DNA of 64,000 nt from NCBI GenBank assembly GCA_951406725.2, contig OX597825.1:88722001-88786000 (forward strand), read 5' to 3'. The position numbers and the translations under genes were made by a program. The notes beneath the pieces were generated by a model. The model was not told the DNA's origin. It ran no database searches and saw nothing but the letters and a program-made list of their open reading frames with translations. Shown one piece after another: positions 4,743 through 59,897 of the stretch. Source of the stretch: Octopus vulgaris. Taxonomy: Eukaryota. Position 1 is the first letter of the stretch; each line of letters starts with the position of its first letter.

Positions 4743-6478
4743 ACTGAATGAGCAATTCAACAGTGCTTTCACTCCACCCCTTGGGCCATTCCAAATCACC
4801 AATCCAACTGACTTCTTTACCACTGCAGATATAACATCAGAGGCGGCGACGATAAATTACATCGATATAAAGGAAGACGATGTAATAAAGGCTATAGATG
4901 AAATGAAAACAGACTCAGCTACTGGCCCCGATGGATTCCCGGCAATCCTCCTAAAAGTATGTAAGAGAGTCCTAGCAAGACCACTGCAGTTCCTCTTTCA
5001 GAGCTTCCTTGCAGCTGGCAAACTTCCAAGAAAACTGAAAGAAGGTAAAATATGCCCTATTCATAAAGGAGGTAGCAGAGCGGAGGCCAAGAACTACAGA
5101 CCTATCTCTCTGACCTCACACATCCGCAAGGTCATGGAACGAATAGTCAGAAGGAAACTGATCACCTTCCTTGAAGAAAATGAATTGCTGCCTGACACCC
5201 AACATGGTTTCTGACCAGGGAGAAGCTGCTTAACTCAGCTCCTACAACACTATGACTGGGTGCTGAAACAGCTGCTCAACCACTCAAAATGTGGAAGTGA
5301 TATATCTCGACTTTGCAAAGGCCTTTGATAAAGTCGATCATGGAATGATATGTCACAAACTGCGTGATCTCAGCATAGTTGGAAAACTGGGAGAATGGCT
5401 TCATGACTTTCTGAAATAGTGAGCGGTGTTCCGCAGGGCACAGTTTTGGGTCCACTACTGTTCATAATGGCCCTCTCAGACATGCCCTCAGCCACGCATA
5501 GAGCCACGATCACAAGTTATGCAGATGATACAAAAGTTTCACAGGCAATACAGAACCCTGAGGACTCTAAATGCCTGCAATGTGAGCTGGACAAAATATA
5601 CAAGTGGGCTGAAAAGAATAGCATGCAGTTCAATGCTGAAAAGTTTCAAGCTTTATACTATCAGCATGCAAAACTAAATGCAATACCCAATGAATACACT
5701 GGACCCAGATGAATTGCAATCCCAGAGGCACAATCAGTGCGTGACCTGTGTATTTACATGAGTGATGACGCAACCTTTCGTGTACATGCTGCTAAATTGG
5801 CAATGAAATGTAGACGACTGGCCGGATGGATTCTCAGAACCTTTAGAACAAGAGAACAAGAAACCATGATGGTCCACTGGAGGACACTTGTCCTAAGCCA
5901 CTTTGACTATTGCTCTCAGCTATGGTCACCATCCAGTGTCAAGTTGATCACAGAACTTGAGGCGATCCAACGTAGCTACACGAAGAAGATAGCCTCTATG
6001 CAGAATATAAGCTACTGGGAAAGACTCAAGAGATTAAAACTCTTTTCCTTGGAGCGTAGGCGAGAAAGATATGCCATAATATACATCTGGAAGATCCTGG
6101 AGGGTAGTGTACTGAACTTTGGCATTGAGAGTTACACAAATGCCAGAACTGGGCGCCACCGCGTGGTGCCTAGGATCCAAATTTGCCATCAAGATGTAGG
6201 ACAAGCTCTTCAATATCCTCCCGAAGAATCTAAGAGACCTGCATGGGGTGGATGCAGATGTCTTTAAAATGAAACTTGATCTCTTCTTGTCAGGTATCCC
6301 AGATGAACCAACTTCACGGCAGGAGGTGCAGATAAGAGCAGCTGCATCGAACTCTCTCATGCACCAAATGGCAGTTGCTAAAAAGCATTCGTGAAGTAAA
6401 ACCATGTAGCAACACCAAATGGCGGTGCCCCAGCATGGCCACAGCTCATGAGCTGAAACTAGAATCAAATCAATCAAT
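4741..6478 (+). pseudogene. 5'-truncated CR1/L2-type LINE RT with stops, frameshifts and an internal deletion; 3' tail intact
   Basis: [45 protein letters not shown] across ORFs 4903, 5419, 5737; ends in a short (AATC)n-like tail. Confidence 0.92.
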
Positions 6479-6490
6479 CATATATATATA

Positions 6491-6876
6491 CTAGCAGTAT
6501 CGCCCGGCGTTGCTCAGGTTTGTAAGGGAAATAACTATAAAGCATTTTTAGAGAGTTATAGCCAAAAAAATAGCCAACTAATGGAAAAAAATGATGGTAA
6601 AATTTGTTTAGAGTAAAAATAGGTGGAGTTGCGTCCCCTAGACAGTGTGCCGTTTGTGTTTCTGATTCTCGACCCATGTCGAATTTATCGATTTTTTTCA
6701 GAAGTGGGGGAACTTTTCAAAATTTTCGCTGCGTTAGTTTTGAATTATGACATTGGGCTATGTGTATGTCAAGTTTCATCAGAATCGGTTGAAAGCCGTG
6801 GTCAGGGTGAGGGTACAAGCAAACAGACACACAGAAAAACGCACAGACAAACTGCCGTTTATATAGAGAGAGATAT

Positions 6877-6907
<31 letters not shown>

Positions 6908-7345
6908 GATATATATATACATATATATATATACATACGTATATATACATATATATACACTAGCAGTATCGCCCGGCGTTGCTCAGGTTTGTAAGGGAAA
7001 TAACTATAAAGCATTTTTAGAGAGTTATAGCCAAAAAAATAGCCAAAAAATGGAAAAATTGATGCTAAAATTTTTTTTAGAGTAAAAATAGGTGGAGTTG
7101 CGTCCCCTAGACAGTGTGCCGTTTGTGTTTCTGATTCTCGACCCATGTCGAATTTATCAATTTTTTTCAGAACTGGGGGAACTTTTCAAAATTTTCGCTG
7201 CGTTAGTTTTGAATTATGACATTGGGCTATGTGTATGTCAAGTTTCATCAGAATCGGTTGAAAGCCGTGGTCAGGGTGAGGGTACAAGCAAACAGACACA
7301 CAGAAAAACGCACAGACAAACTGCCGTTTATATAGAGAGAGATAT

Positions 7346-7382
<37 letters not shown>

Positions 7383-7812
7383 TATATATATACATATATA
7401 TATACATACGTATATATACATATATATACACTAGCAGTATCGCCCGGCGTTGCTCAGGTTTGTAAGGGAAATAACTATAAAGCATTTTTAGAGAGTTATA
7501 GCCATAAAATAGGAAAAAGATGGAAAAAAATTATGGTAAATTTTTTTTTAGTTAAAAAAGGTGGAGTTGCGTCCCCTAGACAGTTTGCGGTTTGTGTTTC
7601 TGATTCTCGACCCCATGTCGAATTTATCGACTTTTTTCAGAACTGGGGGAACTTTTCAAAATTTTCGCTGCGTTAGTTTTGAATTATGACATTGGGCTAT
7701 GTGTGTGTCAAGTTTCATCAGAATCGGTTGAAAGCCGTGGTCAGGGTGAGGGTACAAGCAAACAGACACACAGAAACACGCACAGACAAACTGCCGTTTA
7801 TATATATAGAGA
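6491..7812 (-). mobile_element. Tandem array of three non-autonomous Helitrons (6491-6873, 6960-7342, 7431-7812)
   Basis: ~470 bp period; each unit has CTAG plus hairpin at the minus-strand 3' end and TC at the 5' end; similar TA-rich spacers. Confidence 0.85.
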
Positions 7813-7871
7813 TATATATACATATATATATACATATATATACATACGTATATATACATATATATACATAT

Positions 7872-8151
7872 AAAGACCCCCTTCGGTCATGAATGACCAT
7901 GGGATTGCACCTAGAAAGTTACCTCCTAGACACAAGTCCAGGCAAGGTTGTTTATGGAAGGCTAGCAGTCGCCCATGCATACCAGCCTCCCCTCTCCACG
8001 CCACCAGTGTTATCCAAGGGAAAGGCAAAGGGCCCGATACAGCTTGGCACCTGTGACGTCGCAACTCAATTCTACAGCTGACTGAACTGGAGCAACGTGA
8101 AATAAAGTGCCTTGCTCGAGAACACAACACGCAGCCCGGTCCGGGATTCGA
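7872..8151 (-). mobile_element. 5'-truncated SINE of a second family
   Basis: B-box-like remnant at the right end (minus TCGAATCCCGG); flanked by a duplicated ATATATACATACGTATATATACATATATATACATAT (probable TSD); degenerate relatives near 55.6k and 56.3k. Confidence 0.7.
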
Positions 8152-10879: not shown

Positions 10880-11290
10880 AAAGAATCATGAGGAAATATA
10901 AGAACTAGAAAAGACTAAAACTTACAGACTAGCAAATGATGAAAGTGCAAGAATGTGGACCATGAAGAGAGTGTCTGTCATTCCAGTTGTTGTAAGGGAA
11001 CTCGGAGCACTAACGAGCGAGTGCAAGAAATATATCGCAGAAATCGGAACTGACACGAGAGCAGAGAATGCCGCAAGAAAACTGCTCTGTTAGGGACAGC
11101 TAGGAATTTGAGATAGGTACTTGGACGCCCAATGTCTCCCACAATAAGGAAAAACCAAGTATCAAAACTTCTGTTGTGCTGAAAGAGAGCCTGTGAGACC
11201 TACTTTCCGATCTGACGGTAGCAAACAAGAACAAACAAGATGGAGCGCTATGTGAAAGAAAATAACAACAAAACAACAACAACAATAATA
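10880..11290 (+). mobile_element. R4/Dong-type LINE 3' fragment (end of restriction-like endonuclease)
   Basis: RMWTMKRVSVIPVVVRELGAL resembles the ORF ends at 18.7k and 27.6k; (CAA/TAA)n tail. Confidence 0.65.
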
Positions 11291-11307
11291 ATAAGATCAA
11301 TACTAAA

Positions 11308-11860
11308 TGCCCTGATGCAGTATCCGACAGTGGCTCTCATGGCTTCTAATCTTACCTGATTGGAAGTCTATATTGTTTTGTTATGTACATTGTTTTGTTT
11401 TGTTTTTAAAGAAGGGCTACGTTAAATATGCCGCTTAATACCACAGATTTCTTTGAGAGTTATTCCACCATAACCAATTGAGCGATCCCTTAGTAGCTGA
11501 CGATATGTGCATCTCCGATCACGAGCAGAAGTAGTGAGGGAGCCATAGATTGAAGGGAATTCTTTGGGATTTATATAATTCACCTTTGGAAAAATGGGTG
11601 TTTTGTTCATCATCATTAAGCAACGCTTATTCAGGGACATTTTGAGCTGGATGGGCTACTTGACCTGAGGAAAATTCTAAGTGGGCCCCACCTGCAAGGT
11701 CGTGCGCTGTTTATCTTGATATGACATCACCACGTCACGCACATATGGTTGTGATGCATGTGCCTGGTTTATCCTTATCTGGCGGGTAGTCCTGATGGGT
11801 ATATTGGGCTTCGTATATTTTACCCGTGTCACTTTGACTGCATGCACTGCTCTCTCACTC

Positions 11861-11899
<39 letters not shown>

Positions 11900-12470
11900 C
11901 ATTGCCCTGATGCAGTCCCAGGCAGTGGCTCTCATGGCTTCTGATCTTAACTGATTGGAAGTGTTATCATGTACATTGTTTTGTCTTGGTATAAAAGATG
12001 GGCTACAGCAAATATTCTACTCAATACCACAGATTTGCTTGTCAGTTGTTTGACCTTAACCAGTTGAGCATGTCCCTTGGTGGCTGACGATATGTGCATC
12101 TCTGATCACGAGCAGAAGTAGTGGGGGAGCATCATAGCCATGTGTTGAGAGGAATTCTTTGGGGGTTTGGATAGTTCACCTCTGGAAACATGGGTGGTTC
12201 TTTCAACATCCTTAAACAACCCTTATTCAGGGACCGTTTGAGCGGGATGGGCTACTCAACCTGAAGAAAATTCTAACTGGGCCCCACCTGCAAGGTCATG
12301 TGCTGTTTATCTTGATATGAGATCACCATGTCGCGCACATATGGTTGTGATGTATGTGCCTGGTGTACCTTTATCAGACGGGTAGTCATGATGGGTATAT
12401 TGGGCTTCGTATATTTTACCCCAGTGTCACTTTGATGGCATGAACTGCTCTCTCACTCAATAATAATAAT
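11308..12470 (+). mobile_element. Two head-to-tail copies (11308-11860, 11903-12458) of a ~555 bp non-coding element ending in (AAT)n
   Basis: Both start TGCCCTGATGCAGT and end CTGCTCTCTCACTC-AATAATAAT; copies are diverged; no credible ORF. Confidence 0.75.
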
Positions 12471-13337
12471 ATCATCAGTGATGTGTATATTAGCATATTA
12501 AAATGGCAAAGTTTAGAATACCATTTTTGAATGGGGAGATGAAATCGATAAAATCTATTATGAAGGCAAAAACGAAAGACAATAATAGACATATGATGAC
12601 GGCCAGACGAAATGACTGCATTGGTGATTCACATTAAACTAAATTATTTTTGCCCGAAGATCAAAACCACCTTCACAACATTTATAAATATATATTTAGA
12701 GAACAAAATAAATACAGATTTCAGATGTAGAAGTCTAGAAAAAAGGGTTATAGAAAACCACGGACAAAAGAAAACGAATATATTTACTAAAATATATGGA
12801 AATTACAAGAGATGAGTTATATCGAAATAAAAACCAATATATTACTTAATATTAATAATCTCTGAATACACATTTGTTCTGCTAACGCTTGAAAAACAAT
12901 AACGTAGCTGAAGGTAATGACCTATCCTATATCGGCATATTCAGTTCGTGTTTACTACATTTTACGATATAAACCATTAAAGCAAACATATTTAAACGGG
13001 AAAGACTGTATTGTTCCGAGTAAGACCAAATGAATATATACTAACACATACATGAGGCAGGGACATACATCTTAATACACAATACATATAAGATAAAATG
13101 ATGCAACATATATATTAATATATTAGAGACACAGCATCAATAAATGACATTCATAGAAAATATCATGAAGCACATCAAAATCTCACAAACACGATTCATA
13201 TACGGCAATCAAACCCGAAATATAAATTAATACAGATTATGATAATATAATACAGAGATACAATCCAGTCTAGCGACATGTTTATCACATTCATTACAAG
13301 ATTTCAACGTATCAAACTACTTATATGTATATATGTA

Positions 13338-15203: not shown

Positions 15204-16665
15204 AGTCACATTTCGTTGTTACATAGTTCAATTTATTGTATCATCTTCTAACAAATACGTTGTTTTGCCGCCTTACGGCAGGTGTTGTTGAGGTTTAGCC
15301 TCTTGTTTGAAGGGGGAAGCGCGGTACAGTGGAGATGGAGTGAATTAGCTACTCAGAGTTGTTGTTGTCGTCTGAGTCGGAGATGGCAAGATATTTCGAG
15401 ATAATAGAATTTTGTATTGAGACGGTGAGAGACAAATCAGAAGACGTGTACACAGAAGATATTGATAAAATGAGAGAAACGATGAGAAAGGTGGGGACAA
15501 TATAAAGATGTCCCCTCCGAGAGAGACAACCGAAGATGTGTCAAGACGAGCGATAATGTATAGAATGTACAACGTAAACAACCCATCAAATATAGGAAAT
15601 ATAGCAGAAGTTGAAAGAGCTTTAAGGCGCCGATGGAGAGAAAAGAAATACCTGAGCGCAGGGAGAAAATTCACAATGATGGAGGTGTGGTGTACGTCTG
15701 AGGCTGTGGCTAGACAGCACGCCGTTGCTACCCTCAGAACGGAAGAGGCGATCCTTTTGTCCATATATCAGGAAAGACGGGCTTCACAGGCAAGTGTAGA
15801 TCCCTCCTGAGGTGGATACTGCATGTCTGGTAGCTGCTATTTCAATTGGAATGGAGAAGATTGTGGTCCTCCAGACGACAAGAGAGCCACCAACAATTTG
15901 GCAAGGGCAGTACCTGGAAATGGTATTCCAGATCGCCTCGGAATACCTAGAAAGGATGGTGGAAACTATCACAGTTGGTGAAAAAGTTAAGTTGAGACGC
16001 GCAAATGTTATTATTAGATCTGGCGAAAAAGTTCACATTAACGCTGAATGCCCCCACCCAGCACAAAGGCACCAAAAGAGACAATAGCGCCTACGGTGAG
16101 GTCGTGTGTGAGCGAGGAGGAGCCAGAGAAGATAGAACAACAATAGAGATGGACAACACAACAAAAATAAAAGGATAAAATCAGGAGAAAAACATGTGAA
16201 CCCTCACTCTACTCCCACCAGATTCCCCAAACCAACTGCTAGAAATATGTTACGCGTTAGGGTACAACAAGGCAAATGGAAAACTGAAGGATTATTTATA
16301 AAAGCTAAAAAGCGTACCTGAGTCAGTGGTCGAGAAAGATGATGAGGGTTGCCCGAAAACTCCGAATGCGTCCTGGTGAATGAGTAGGAAAGAACTAGGC
16401 TGATTAGAAACTTTGCGACAGAAATTAATGGCAAACCTCGTATCGGAGTCAAGTATGTTCCAACCTTCGGCGACCTTTAATGGATTTTAAGTGTTTTTAA
16501 GAAGTGTAAATGAAGTCGCTGGAATGTTGAGTCGAGTGGATTCGTACCCTTTCATTGTTTATGTTCCTTCCTACTCGTTTTTCTTCTTTTGTCCCCACTT
16601 ATATGTTTGTCTGCCCTTGTGTCGTGCTCTTATATTTAGTCCCTTTTGGGCGATAAATATAAAAA
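15204..16665 (+). mobile_element. Decayed ORF1/Gag-only non-LTR-like element
   Basis: ORFs 15508 and 15812 align by eye with the 57.5-58.9k protein (YLSAGRKFTMMEVWCTSEAVAR vs YMTKGLEYGTITVQFKSEKAAR); degenerate knuckle GEKVHINAECP; T-rich 3' UTR and A-rich end; no RT. Confidence 0.65.
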
Positions 16666-16777
16666 CATCCGTCACAGACCTCCGGTACTGAATATGATTT
16701 AGAATGTTGGAAAGTTGTCCGGTTATAAAGTTTGCTTCCTCTTATCCGCCTCAACTTTTTAGACACTTTTCTTTGTC

Positions 16778-17262
16778 AGTCACATTCTTTAGTTTTTTAT
16801 TATTGTTTCGTGTTTTAACAAAAAAAAAAAAACCTTTGTTTTGTTGCTTTACGGCAGCTTTGCTGTTACTTTCACTCTTGTTTGAAGGGGAAGCCCGGTA
16901 AAATGGTGATGGAGAGAATCAGCTATTCAGACTTGTTGTGTGAGGAGGAGCTGGCAAGATGTTTGGAGAAAAAAAGACAGAATTTTGCAGATGCGGTGAG
17001 AGAGAAATCAGAAGACGTGTCCTGGTGATCGAATGCGTTCTGGTGAACGAGAAGTAAAGGATCAGGCTGATTAGAAAGCTTGCAACAGAAATTTCTGACA
17101 CACAGACTGAAGTGGCCACCCACGCTGAACTTTAATGACTTTTCTCTTAATTAATCTTAAAAGTTGTAAATGAAGTCGCTCGGCTGTGGGGTCGAGTGGT
17201 TTCATTTCATTTCATTATTCATTTTACACCTTTCACTTTCGTTTTTCTTTTTTGTCCCCCAC
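16778..17262 (+). mobile_element. Internally deleted copy of the preceding Gag-only element
   Basis: Shares the 5' AGTCACATT start and CTCTTGTTTGAAGGGG...AAATCAGAAGACGTGT, joined directly to the 3' block CGAATGCGT...TGTAAATGAAGTCGCT...TGTCCCC. Confidence 0.7.
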
Positions 17263-26465: not shown

Positions 26466-26521
<56 letters not shown>

Positions 26522-26552
<31 letters not shown>

Positions 26553-26697
26553 CCCTAAAACTTGAGAATTACACAACCAATTTCATTCAAAATTTACATA
26601 TGCCTTACTTAGGGTCTATGTAGTGTCATGGGCAAAAATTTTAACTTCTTGCCTCTGGCGAGCCCACAGCAGTATCATATCTTCTCCACTATTTCAG

Positions 26698-26703
<6 letters not shown>
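26522..26703 (+). mobile_element. Helitron 5' fragment (family of 56915-59603)
   Basis: Reverse-complement match to ~59405-59570. Confidence 0.6.
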
Positions 26704-55381: not shown

Positions 55382-56918
55382 ACTAGTGGGTATATATTTA
55401 TAAAAAAGAAGTTTGAAAACGCCACTATATACGATAAATTTTAATTTTCTGAGACATTTTACATGCTTCGGTTCTTCTTGAAAAACGAACGTTATCAAAA
55501 AATATATTTTTAAAAGTTAAGTGTAATAAAAGAAAAGTTCATAATTGTTTCTTACTAGTCTCAACAGAGTCCACGTGGAAGCGTTTTATGTGTGGGAACA
55601 TAATGGCTGTCTTGTGCATTGACTAGAATCGTTGGCTGTAATAGTGACTTTCAATATTATACCCAACGATCCTTGTCAACGTGAAAAAAGAGTCTTACTC
55701 AAGGACACAACATAACATGAGGAATTGAACCTACGACCATGAGCCAAATGCCCTAACCATTAAACCATTTGTTTCCACATATATAACGAAAGAAATACAC
55801 ATACACACAAACTGTTGTAGTTATCAGAAAGTTGAATGTCTCTATAACAAAACAGAAGTGGAATCCAAAAAGACAATCAAGTAGCAACAGTCACATTACT
55901 CTAGATCAATAACTTAACGAATTCCAAAGAGGAAGCCATAGCAGTAATGGACGACAACATTTGTTATGAAAGAATTGAACCGTTAGAAAACCACATCCAG
56001 AATGTTATGAAAGAATTGTTATGATTCTCATGAAATAAGACTTGAAACAAAACAGAATTAGTGATCTAAAATGTGATTTGTATAGACAGAAAGAGCAGTA
56101 TGCTACAAGAGATCACACAGCACACACACGATATCTTATGTTAGAGATGTTGCTTTCATTAGTACCGGAGAAGATAATAGCCCAGATCTGGCTATTGTTA
56201 TCATGTCAATGGAACAAACAAATAAAAAGACTGGCACTTCATTGGCTACAACAACAAGGGTCCCAGTTAATCTGATCAACAGAACAACCTGCTCATGAAA
56301 TTAACATAGCCACAGGGAGATTCAGTGTGACAGTATTTGACAAAGCCGGCCCTTTAAAATACACGTAATACTCACTTTTGCCAGCTGAGTGGACTGGTGC
56401 AATGTGAAATTGTCATACTCAAGGACAATACGTGCTGCTGTGTAGTAACATAAAAATGATACAAGACACTATATAGTTATATGTTGAGCCACTAGTTATC
56501 AACTTTCCTAAGTAGGCAGATTTCTTTAAGATTATAGTATGTATACATACTTACACACACAATTTTTTTGTTTTGTTTTGAAATTTAAGATGTTTTACAG
56601 AATTTTAATTAAACCCTTATTTTTGTTATATTTCTCTTGAAAAGCACTTCACCTTAATTTGAAAAGTAATGAACAATTTAGTAAAACAACTTATTAAGCT
56701 GGTGTTTAGAACATAAATTAACAGGAAATTATTATGCAAAGTTTAATTTGTTGATACTAGTAAGAAACAATTATGAACTTTTATTACATTTAACTTTTAG
56801 AACTATATTTTTTTGATAACGCTCGTTTTTTCATGAAGAACTGAAAGTGTAAAATTTCTCAGAAAATTAAAATTTATCATACAGTGGCGTTTTCAAACTT
56901 CTTTTATATATACACTAG
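55382..56918. repeat. ~170 bp inverted repeat pair (55382-55559 / 56756-56918) enclosing SINE remnants
   Basis: AAAAGAAGTTTGAAAACGCCACT...TTCATAATTGTTTCTTACTAG and its reverse complement. Confidence 0.8.
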
Positions 56919-57089
56919 CATTAAAGACCCGTCGTTGCCGGGTCATAGTGCTAGTGCATGTATATATATGTGTATATATATGTGTACATATTACATGTAC
57001 ATCTATATATATACATCTACACATAAATTACAATATACAAAGTTATATCTTGATATCGCTAGTGATAACAATACTCAAAATATATAACA

Positions 57090-57405
57090 GACTGGAATTG
57101 TTAGCCCGTCTCTTGTAATTTCGATCAATTGTATTTTGTCCCCCCTCTTGTATAGAAGTGTGGCTACAATCCAGCCTACCTCTACTTCTGGGGGGATGGC
57201 ATTTTAAAGTTTTTTTCCGGGACGTCCTACGTCCCAGATATTAAGGTAAAAATAAAATATTTCCACTTTGCAAGTTCGAGTCGAGTACTCCCTTGCACGC
57301 TCCGTTGACTCGAACCTTGCTTCTATTGTGGCGAATTTACCGCCTCTGATTAGATATCTTTCATAGTCGCACCAAGACACTTTTCGAAGGTGCTTTCCTC
57401 CATGT
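57090..57405 (-). pseudogene. Fragment of a third Gag/ORF1 family member
   Basis: YLIRGGKFATIEARFESTERAREYSTRT...GRRTSR...EVGWIVATLL. Confidence 0.65.
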
Positions 57406-57552
57406 TATTTCTTTATTACCCACCAGGGGCTACGAAGAATGGCGGACATAACAAAACATGGGGGACATAGAACAATATGATTAAATTTATGAGCAAATGA
57501 AAATGAAAAAATGATAATATGAAAGCGATGCTAACGGCCCCCTCCGCCAGCA

Positions 57553-58916
57553 TCACTTACCTGTCCTTTTGTTTTCACTGTCACCTGAATGTTCATTCCC
57601 AATACGAAGACCATCCATATCCATTCTTACTCCGAAACTGTCCTCCATATATTCCACGAATTCATCGCTCATTCTTGTATCTTTCACCTCCCAATTCTCC
57701 CTTTCACACCTCAACACAAACTCATCTATATTCTTCTTTTCCAGCACTGCATATCTGGTCCCATCCATTTCATACCATTCATACTCCTCCATTACCCTTT
57801 CAACCTCTTTCTGTTCAGTCACAATATAAATGTTCGGCCTGGGTTCGTTTTCAAACTCTTGTCTGTCTGTATTGTTATTTTTCTTTTGTTTTCTTGTTGG
57901 AGGGGAGCGGGTGGGTTCACTGTCTGCAGGGGAAGGGTGGGATTCAGAGGGTGCGGGTGGTGTTGGGGTGGGTTGGGGCTTCGCACAGTTTTTCTTTTTC
58001 TTTCTTTTTCTCTTTTTTCTTCCTTCTTCCCACTCTTGTTGCATCTCCTCTTCTTCTGTCGTTTCTTTTTCCCTTTGGTTCTCTTTGGTTTCTTCCTCTT
58101 TTGGGGCTTCCGCGACGATTTCCTTTTCTTTTTCCTTTAGTGGTGGAGGGCAGTAGGCTCTTATGTGACCCCTCATGCCACACTTGTAGCACCTGGGCGC
58201 CCTACCCTCCACCCACACTCTCATAATAATATTTCCAGTTTTTATACTGTCCGTAAGCTTTTCTATTACTTCCGCCTCCGTCTGTATGTTCATTTCTAGT
58301 GTGGCACCTCTCACGCCTTCATATTTCATAATGGCGTGGAGGATGTCCACTTTATCTTCATTTCCTTTGATAACCGCAGCCGTTATTAATTCGCCCTCTA
58401 GGTGTGGAGGTATTCCTTCCACCCTAATTCTGGTGGTCCTTCTATTCAAATACGAGGGAACAAGTAAAACTTTTCTGTACTCACCACCTTGGCTGCTATA
58501 TTCCTGGCTGCTTTCTCACTTTTAAATTGTACCGTTATGGTTCCATATTCTAATCCTTTTGTCATGTACACAATTTCTTCTCCTGTCCGTTTGAAAGCCT
58601 CTTCAATTGCTTCCATGTTAATCACTTCCATTTTTCTACCTCCATTCATAAATACTTTATATTTAATGGTTCTACGATGGAACCAGTCTCCGCGCCCTGC
58701 TAGAGGCAACAGCTCAACCTCTCCGTTCTCCTCCTCCTTCATGAACTCCTGGAAGTCCGTCAACTTAGCCAGGTCTATCTCTTTTTCTGTTGACTTCTTC
58801 GTTATACCTGCATAGGTGCTTTCCATTTTTTTCACCGCCAACTCCTCCTCAGATGTCGACGAATTTTCAGAGAAATTTCTCCCTTCCATCTCATCCGTTT
58901 GGTAGAGGCGGCTCAT
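57553..58916 (-). CDS. Gag/ORF1-like nucleic-acid-binding protein (~455 aa) split by one frameshift near 58455
   Basis: ORFs 58446..59027 and 57553..58449 join as LFPSYLNRRTT if one base is added; RRM-like region, CYKCGMRGHIRAYC (CX2CX4HX4C), K/E-rich and basic NLS-like linker; CpG-rich 5' UTR; AATAAA near 57415. Confidence 0.75.
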
Positions 58917-59897
58917 AGTCGCCTCAGACCGAAAAACGGCCTCCCGAACAGAAAACGTGCGACGCACAGAACCAGTGCGACGCGAAACCGCACCAACCGA
59001 CGTTCCAATTCCGCAACCACAATTCACTTTTTGTTGTTTTTTCTTTTTTAACCGAATTTTACAGAGCGCAAAAAAACGCGACCTTTTTTCTCTACATTGT
59101 ATACTTTATAGACAATAGTCTTTTCTTTAATTTAATTTTTTATTATCCATCTGGACTATTCCAGTTCTGCACGCTAATTTTATTTTTAATTTATTCCCAT
59201 TCATGTGAAACCACTTATTCAAGTTCAAGTCATTCATGCAATTTTATACCAATTGCTATTTTTACTTTTGTTATGTTACGATTAAATTATACTTTAGTTT
59301 GATTTTAATTATTACTTACTACATATAATTCAATTGTTATTATTATTGTTAAAGTGAAAGTATCTGATATAAAATAGAGAAATGTTTTTGTTTCACTTTT
59401 AACACGTAATATGAAATAGTGGAGAAGATATGATATTGCTATGGGCTCGCTCTAGGCAAGAAGTTGAACATTTTTTTTTGCCCATGAAACTACATGGACC
59501 CTAAGTAAGGCATGTAAAATTTGAATGAAATTGGTTGTGTATTTCTCAAGTTTTCGGGAAACACACAGACAGACAGACATTCTCAGTTTTATATATATAA
59601 AGATATGTGTCAAGTAAAGAACTCACACGAGCTAACGTAGTGTATATATTAGAAATAGATGTTAAATGCTGTTTTCAACTGAAGATCGCAAAGTATGTTT
59701 CTCATGCAATGCGTGAAATCAATTGGTATTGAAATATACATTAGATATCGGTGTATTCAAAGCAAAGCTAAACCTATTTCTGAAATGCTCATGGTATTGC
59801 TCGTGTGTATGTCTATCGTAATTTTTATGGTGGTTTTTGTAGCAATGGCTCTGATTTTAGCAAGTGATATTATATACCCTACCTAATCTTAAATTAG

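Follow-up and report, generated by a model that had tools for sequence, protein, structure and literature searches.

Several non-autonomous LINEs that retain an ORF1 are already known, among them HeT-A, HAL1 (half-L1) and Ag-Sponge (PMC5786205, PMC5753468). At fly telomeres, an ORF1-only element and its RT-bearing partners form head-to-tail arrays, as in the HeT-A/TART/TAHRE system (PMC5537684). Other LINEs are specific for sites inside DNA transposons: Tx1L lies within Tx1D in Xenopus, whereas in crocodilians Tx1-Mar and SINEU elements occupy Mariner-N4_AMi and Tx1-9_AMi occupies a Harbinger element (PMC4494074).

The window analyzed here is a stretch of 64,000 nucleotides from Octopus vulgaris (contig OX597825.1, positions 88,722,001 to 88,786,000), in which an earlier note, made from the letters of the DNA, had described a near-intact retroelement carrying only an ORF1 (Gag). 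We conclude, with a probability of roughly 0.85, that this is an ORF1-only unit at a fixed site in a Helitron-like repeat, likely copied in trans by a co-resident L1/Tx1-type LINE. The earlier note had recognized neither this host repeat nor the helper and the chains described below.

The element in the window

The element is very probably a single young, frameshifted unit of an old octopus family of ORF1-only non-LTR retroelements (Table 1). The boundaries first proposed for it (59080 and 57406) coincide with unit ends in other copies, and the parts that the earlier note had named were all recovered: the CpG-rich 5' UTR, with a CpG observed/expected ratio of 2.0 versus 0.82 for the whole window, the single CCHC knuckle and the short 3' UTR with its AATAAA. 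The protein, which had been put at about 455 aa, is 454 aa long in intact copies elsewhere; in the window it is split over two frames by a 1-base gap at 58459/58458, beyond which 2 substitutions separate it from copy L003. Endonuclease and RT are absent from the element, as had been claimed, and the sole ORF2-like match in the window is the unrelated fragment at 4867-5538.

Table 1. Positions of the element, its parts and neighboring features in the window.
Feature	Positions	Strand	Evidence or remark
ORF1-only non-autonomous retroelement (very probable), single full-length unit, 1.68 kb	57406..59082	(-)	Ends 98-99% like other copies; 5' junction GT/CGCG recurrent
CpG-rich 5' UTR, 165 nt	58917..59082	(-)	CpG o/e 2.0
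ORF1	57553..58916	(-)	ATG at 58916, stop ending 57553; intact copies encode 454 aa
Predicted tandem RRM pair, about aa 83-236	58210..58670	(-)	AlphaFold2 pLDDT about 75-89; Foldseek IMP3 RRM12
Single CX2CX4HX4C knuckle	58150..58191	(-)	Sequence; invariant C243 C246 H251 C256; Pfam below cut-off
Predicted C-terminal alpha/beta domain, about aa 362-439	57601..57834	(-)	Apparently swapped between subfamilies; AlphaFold2
3' UTR, about 147 nt, ending GCCCCTGGTGGGTAATAAAGAAATA	57406..57552	(-)	AATAAA at 57417
Target motif ACATGGAGGAAA, immediately 3' of insertion point	57394..57405	(-)	Empty hosts read TTTGAAC-ACATGGAGGAAAGC
5' part of Helitron-like host, starts TC	59083..59603	(-)	Last 17-70 nt are the leader on inner units elsewhere
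3' part of host: hairpin (56926-56944) and CTAG end; dead ORF1 fragment 57117-57359	56915..57405	(-)	
Old degraded ORF1-only relative, distant family	15230..16670	(+)	Profile E 1e-19; closest genomic relatives 65-81%
Relative of the 15.2k copy with an internal deletion	16800..17260	(+)	70-73% to both its 5' and 3' ends
Degraded RT fragment of an unrelated LINE	4867..5538		24% to helper RT
Inverted repeat pair, possibly the termini of another DNA transposon	55399..55566 and 56749..56910		87%; ends 5 bases past host 3' end
Tandem repeats	6479..7872 and 11272..12471		Periods about 470 and 595 bases
Further copy of host 5' end	26503..26703		83% identical

The region that had been called RRM-like is predicted to be a tandem RRM pair. 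AlphaFold2, run on 22 natural copies, predicts order at about residues 50-250 and 360-440 with a disordered linker between, and the best Foldseek matches are tandem RRM proteins (IMP3 RRM12, E 2e-6). Pfam recognized nothing on ORF1 beyond a weak zf-CCHC (E 0.056-0.09, below cut-off), and in the protein database the only named homologues are three incomplete Octopus vulgaris proteins, all hypothetical. The C-terminal domain reached a pLDDT of 54 when folded from a single sequence, too low for use, and found no match in the Atlas. An LTR retrotransposon or retroviral Gag was rejected, since self-BLAST detected no terminal repeat and the fold matches are RRM pairs.

Homologues of the element had also been reported at 15.2-16.7k, 16.8-17.3k and 57.1-57.4k. 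Searching the window with the element by tblastn and blastn missed those at 15.2k and 57.1k; a profile built from 26 genomic ORF1s matched at 15487-16246 (E 1e-19 and 3e-15) and at 57117-57359 (E 1e-9). The first two homologues are thus borne out, the second by a DNA match of 70-73% over 16800-17259. The third is indeed ORF1-related; it is no separate insertion, however, being a dead fragment within the host repeat that empty hosts carry as well. Among 19 other locus rows of the 15.2k family, 11 show the ORF1 part and the 3' end in collinear order and no ORF2 match in between, and one member (L180) has an ORF2 fragment past its 3' end. Neither the 15.2k nor the 16.8k copy is bracketed by an exact TSD of at least 9 nt.

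Persistence of the family without an ORF2

Genome searches with the unit returned 125 scored matches among those listed, at 62 to 100% identity and on many contigs; such searches score top candidates only and may have overlooked an autonomous member of the clade. The fetched loci held 118 distinct ORF1-like ORFs, comprising 91 of this clade, 20 of autonomous families and 7 of a second ORF1-only family. The clade is separated from the autonomous ORF1s with a support of 100/100 in a tree for which the program warned of a long branch leading to the second ORF1-only family. An endonuclease was seen with 18 of the 20 autonomous ORFs and directly downstream (within 900 nt) of none of the 91 clade ORFs, so the search for a downstream APE-RT ORF2 that the earlier note had suggested, far from finding one in most copies, found none. 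The tail motif follows 76 of the 91, whereas the other 15 run off the locus edge, are broken or have a variant tail.

The comparison of dN/dS between subfamilies, likewise suggested beforehand, points to a protein that has been maintained. Across 36 pairs the ORF1 core (RRMs to knuckle) gave dN/dS values of 0.10-0.28 at a dS of up to 2.55, and purifying selection was significant in every pair except one that is near-identical. Taken with the 0 of 91 ORFs followed by an endonuclease, this supports the long-lived ORF1-only lineage that had been postulated. Private changes in 18 young copies, a sample of chosen intact ORFs, gave a dN/dS of 0.53, not 1. The C-terminal domain evolves faster than the core (0.29-1.48), and its distances are out of step with those of the core: L002 and L034 differ by a dS of 2.55 in the core and 0.31 in the C-terminal domain, L002 and L046 by 0.25 and 1.9. 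On these distances, the domain is swapped between subfamilies.

We give almost no credence to the view that the units are artefacts of assembly or the dead remains of an ordinary LINE from which ORF2 was deleted. The frameshift in the window copy and the identical neighbors seen in some arrays would fit it, but neither purifying selection across dS values above 2 nor the at least 125 matches on many contigs would, and contigs of four public runs also cover the unit. One of those runs, presumed to be RNA, contains the host repeat besides the unit and so does not bear on transcription.

The second ORF1-only family (L005:2712-3890, L132, L137, L139 and L144) is about 1.78 kb long, carries the knuckle CYLCGTRGHIKKEC and forms a separate branch. 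Its tail is of the helper's own type and its 5' end is ACATG-like; it probably represents an independent loss of ORF2. At another locus (L117), a C2H2 zinc-finger-like coding sequence is flanked by two ORF1-only units and a LINE end.

The host repeat and its target site

The unit interrupts a repeat of about 1.1 kb at one fixed position, TTTGAAC^ACATGGAGGAAA. Both flanks of the element are common to other loci, and the host spans from 59603 (TC) to 56915 (hairpin, CTAG). Empty copies of 1.0-1.2 kb account for 30 of 60 locus rows, with at least one place counted twice, and their site reads AGAGAAAAAAG(AAG)ATTTGAAC-ACATGGAGGAAAGC. The host is Helitron-like, as judged by its termini only: CTAG is followed by T in 49/50 cases and A precedes the 5' end in 36/37, a test that bears on the flanking bases alone because the search patterns presupposed TC and CTAG ends. 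Of the 30 best copies of the element, 25 end at an ACATG-type motif and the other 5 at the start of another unit or element.

Such a constant position raises the question of whether an ORF1 cassette was picked up by a Helitron on a single occasion and then spread with it by rolling-circle transposition, as the identical 5' junction shared by many loci, which lacks a TSD and 8-11 host bases, and the dead ORF1 fragment already present in the host would suggest. The distances between copies make this highly improbable. Units are far more alike than their hosts: L001 and L003 are 0.1% apart in the unit versus 2.5% and 5.6% in the flanks, 17 young units average 0.94% versus 2.8% and 5.4%, and unit and host-flank distances are not congruent. 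Near-identical units in diverged hosts argue for separate insertions rather than a ride on a copying Helitron. Moreover, the same site is filled by different subfamilies and by an autonomous LINE, A>G clusters suggest that RNA was involved, and the common junction is explained by host leaders found on inner units (all described below). Host diversity is 1.3% beside filled sites compared with 3.4%, and another bin was equally low.

Four loci (L016, L018, L021 and L045) have a 5' junction in which the host motif is one base shorter, a form that none of 20 empty hosts shows, and the hosts of the four differ by up to 8%. The junction of these four was likely copied along with the RNA.

Marks of an RNA intermediate

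RNA editing is extensive in cephalopods, and ADAR disfavors G on the 5' side of the edited A and favors it on the 3' side. Clustered sense-strand A>G changes were present in four copies (62 + 23 examined), which were selected post hoc on their counts of A>G versus T>C: 59 vs 0, 24 vs 1 (L015, of the window's subfamily), 24 vs 3 and 24 vs 5. Around the edited A, G is depleted at the 5' neighbor (8% vs 32%, p 2e-11) and enriched at the 3' neighbor (40% vs 28%, p 0.006). The clusters therefore appear to be of the ADAR type, which would point to an RNA step. The edited C1 unit adjoins an unedited one, and the copy in the window shows no A>G editing. Together with TSDs in divergent subfamilies and 5' truncations, the clusters are indirect evidence suggesting that the family moves through RNA by TPRT.

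A candidate helper LINE

In four of the first five arrays opened, the last element is a LINE that has a 5' UTR and an ORF1 of its own and a 1131-aa ORF2 containing the Pfam domains Exo_endo_phos (APE), RVT_1 and zf-RVT. Among solved structures, this ORF2 is closest to human L1 ORF2p (E 5e-65, against E 5e-26 for R2). Its RT has at least 150 matches at 96-100% identity, many of them in tandem with a 5.27 kb period; tandem arrays of this period lie in G000 on C27 (32.95-32.99 Mb), C22 (14.18-14.24 Mb), C30 (10.43-10.45 Mb) and C58. In a hand-picked sample of 20 autonomous copies, 14 occupy the host site, with the 3' part of the host directly after them, and 4 more end at ACAT or ACAC starts. Three truncated helpers outside the host have TSDs of 18-30 nt that begin with ACA, as judged by eye.

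The helper resembles the unit in two respects only. Their ORF1s are 33% identical over about 240 aa (E 6e-40) and were aligned in full, and the last 45-60 nt are about 83% alike; the latter is what became of the suggestion, also in the earlier note, that the 3' UTR be matched to autonomous tails. MFE folds of the two 3' tails revealed no clearly common hairpin. Because it shares both the insertion site and the 3' tail, the co-resident APE-RT LINE is likely the helper that supplies RT in trans. By its architecture and targeting it likely belongs to the Tx1 clade; the automatic name 'TX1' on one match at 26% does not count toward this.

Divergent ORF1-only subfamilies lie at other repeated targets with TSDs (by eye), which suggests that the lineage has likely changed helpers. 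These subfamilies are found at L113, L115, L116, L118 and L120-L130; a downstream repeat is common within each of the groups L120/L122/L123, L124/L126/L130, L127/L128 and L113/L115, several with TSDs.

Chains of units and how they may arise

Filled host sites have a recurrent order: the 5' part of the host, 1 to about 17 ORF1-only units, often a helper and then the 3' part of the host. Make-up differs between loci, and solo units and helper-free chains are common. The counts of unit order, nearest relatives and junctions rest on a set of 106 parsed units, from which the parser drops units directly before the 3' part of the host and most autonomous copies. The nearest relative is in another array for 36 of 57 units; for the remaining 21, all in two arrays, it is an array-mate, so local duplication likely contributes. 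None of 30 adjacent pairs has another adjacent pair as its nearest relatives.

These observations bear on the idea that a single autonomous LINE possesses several ORF1s, the units being its additional cassettes, and is copied through a long read-through RNA. Many arrays do terminate in an autonomous LINE, and 12 of the 30 top loci have an RT no more than 15 kb downstream. In the arrays opened, however, that RT is part of another element, which has a 5' UTR of its own and an ORF1 that is 33% identical; each unit likewise has its own 5' UTR, tail and AATAAA. With the frequency of solo units and helper-free chains, the variable order and composition and the lack of paired ancestry (0/30), we regard this reading as highly improbable.

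At 78 junctions preceding the main ORF1-only classes, counted by hand and some of them local duplicates, a 3' end that is complete adjoins a 5' end that varies, and ACATG occurs in none. At 12 inner junctions, the unit carries a leader of 17-70 nt matching the host sequence that immediately precedes the target, which makes it likely that the RNAs start within the host. Such a start would also account for the way in which the copy in the window joins the host at its 5' end, a junction that recurs and has no TSD. Within a chain, the final ORF1-only position nearly always belongs to the subfamily of the window copy. At one junction (L111, position 4121 in element orientation), an autonomous copy bears a tail of the ORF1-only type and is followed directly by a unit, which looks as though the leader of that unit had replaced the tail upstream.

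We propose that transcription begins in the host, up to about 70 nt upstream of the site, and yields an RNA with a host leader that the element's own ORF1p would coat, a role that would keep ORF1 under selection. The helper's ORF2p would bind the common tail, nick at ^ACATG and prime reverse transcription. On reaching the 5' end of the RNA, the RT could close onto the upstream host DNA by way of the leader, leaving a TSD-less junction as in the window, or could jump to the 3' end of another RNA, adding to a chain with no target DNA between units. A few arrays would have been lengthened afterwards by local duplication.

Chains could instead be built by the same element and helper through repeated single blunt insertions at a regenerated ACATG, without template jumping. 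This is a serious competitor, to which we assign somewhat less than an even chance. It would explain why the window's subfamily comes last before an ACATG start, which random jumping does not, and blunt insertion would be expected to produce identical unit-unit junctions. Autonomous copies are stacked with ACATGGAGGAAA between them, and the SINEU-3 tandems of crocodilians have been interpreted as sequential (PMC4494074). At other targets (L116, L130 and L113/L115), neighboring units are separated by TSDs, and there sequential insertion is indicated. At the host site, the 78 inner junctions contain no target remnant, whereas the same endonuclease gave TSDs of 18-30 nt on the three truncated helpers, and arrays showed no significant trend in age from one end to the other (rho -0.20, p 0.26, n 34), in what is a weak test. 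The lack of target DNA between units, the host leaders and the A>G clusters favor assembly RNA by RNA. On balance we lean slightly toward template jumping over sequential insertion as the source of these chains, and both may occur.

Relation to known systems

Like HAL1 and Ag-Sponge, the octopus unit is LINE-derived, encodes only ORF1p and appears to rely on an autonomous partner, and like them this type of element seems to have had more than one origin, as the second family lies on its own branch; unlike them, it is site-specific inside another transposon, young and active, and part of mixed chains (PMC5786205, PMC5753468). The HAL1-like class that the earlier note had assigned holds in its working, given the ORF1p-only coding capacity, an ORF1 homologous to that of the autonomous LINE and the common 3' tail. 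Membership in HAL1 proper, which is derived from mammalian L1, was rejected, since the closest named proteins are Octopus hypothetical proteins and the ORF1 has a CCHC knuckle. Mammalian L1 ORF1 has a coiled-coil/RRM/CTD layout, in contrast to the RRM-RRM-CCHC layout in octopus.

The chains resemble HeT-A/TART/TAHRE in their same-direction, head-to-tail arrangement of a Gag/ORF1-only element with RT-bearing partners, and resemble HeT-A in a transcription start in upstream sequence, which in octopus is suggested by the host leaders; unlike HeT-A, they are interstitial, lie at many loci inside a Helitron-like repeat, have a short 3' UTR and are L1/Tx1-type rather than Jockey (PMC5537684). Membership in HeT-A was rejected on the interstitial loci, the 3' UTR of about 147 nt and a partner closest to L1 among solved structures. 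As with Tx1L and Tx1-Mar, a LINE that is specific for its target inserts into a DNA transposon that is itself non-autonomous, and passengers share its target and occur in tandem (PMC4494074). The octopus passengers, unlike SINEU and the other SINEs of that paper, encode a selected protein, and the host is Helitron-like, a word that the paper does not contain (PMC4494074). SINEU-3 tandems sandwich a TSD there, whereas the octopus tandem units have none and form chains of up to 14-17 units (PMC4494074).

Within the literature in scope, to which most subscription papers did not belong, we found no ORF1-only Tx1-type family, Helitron target or such chains described in cephalopods. The ingredients each have precedents (HAL1/HeT-A; Tx1L in Tx1D; Tx1-Mar/SINEU); for the combination we found no description, with Repbase and Dfam outside the search. 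R2 performs template jumping and 5' joining through upstream homology. The octopus chains would be like R2 in joining RNA templates end to end and forming the 5' junction via a host-derived leader, and they differ in that the process is deduced from genomic junctions and would involve an APE-type system acting in trans.

We tentatively picture, and would put at slightly below even odds, an ancient protein-coding LINE parasite that has switched helpers and targets, swaps its C-terminal domain, builds HeT-A-like interstitial chains at many Helitron sites as a borrowed RT jumps between templates and carries ADAR-edited RNA into the germ line. The family offers a young, high-copy, intact system in which to ask why a non-autonomous LINE retains a selected ORF1 when SINEs manage without one, a question on which HAL1 fossils are silent. 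Its likely helper is an active APE-type LINE that is specific for a defined sequence of 12 bases. RT template jumping is known mainly from R2 biochemistry, and here a genome may record it. The A-to-G clusters, in turn, may mark a route from RNA editing to heritable DNA change.
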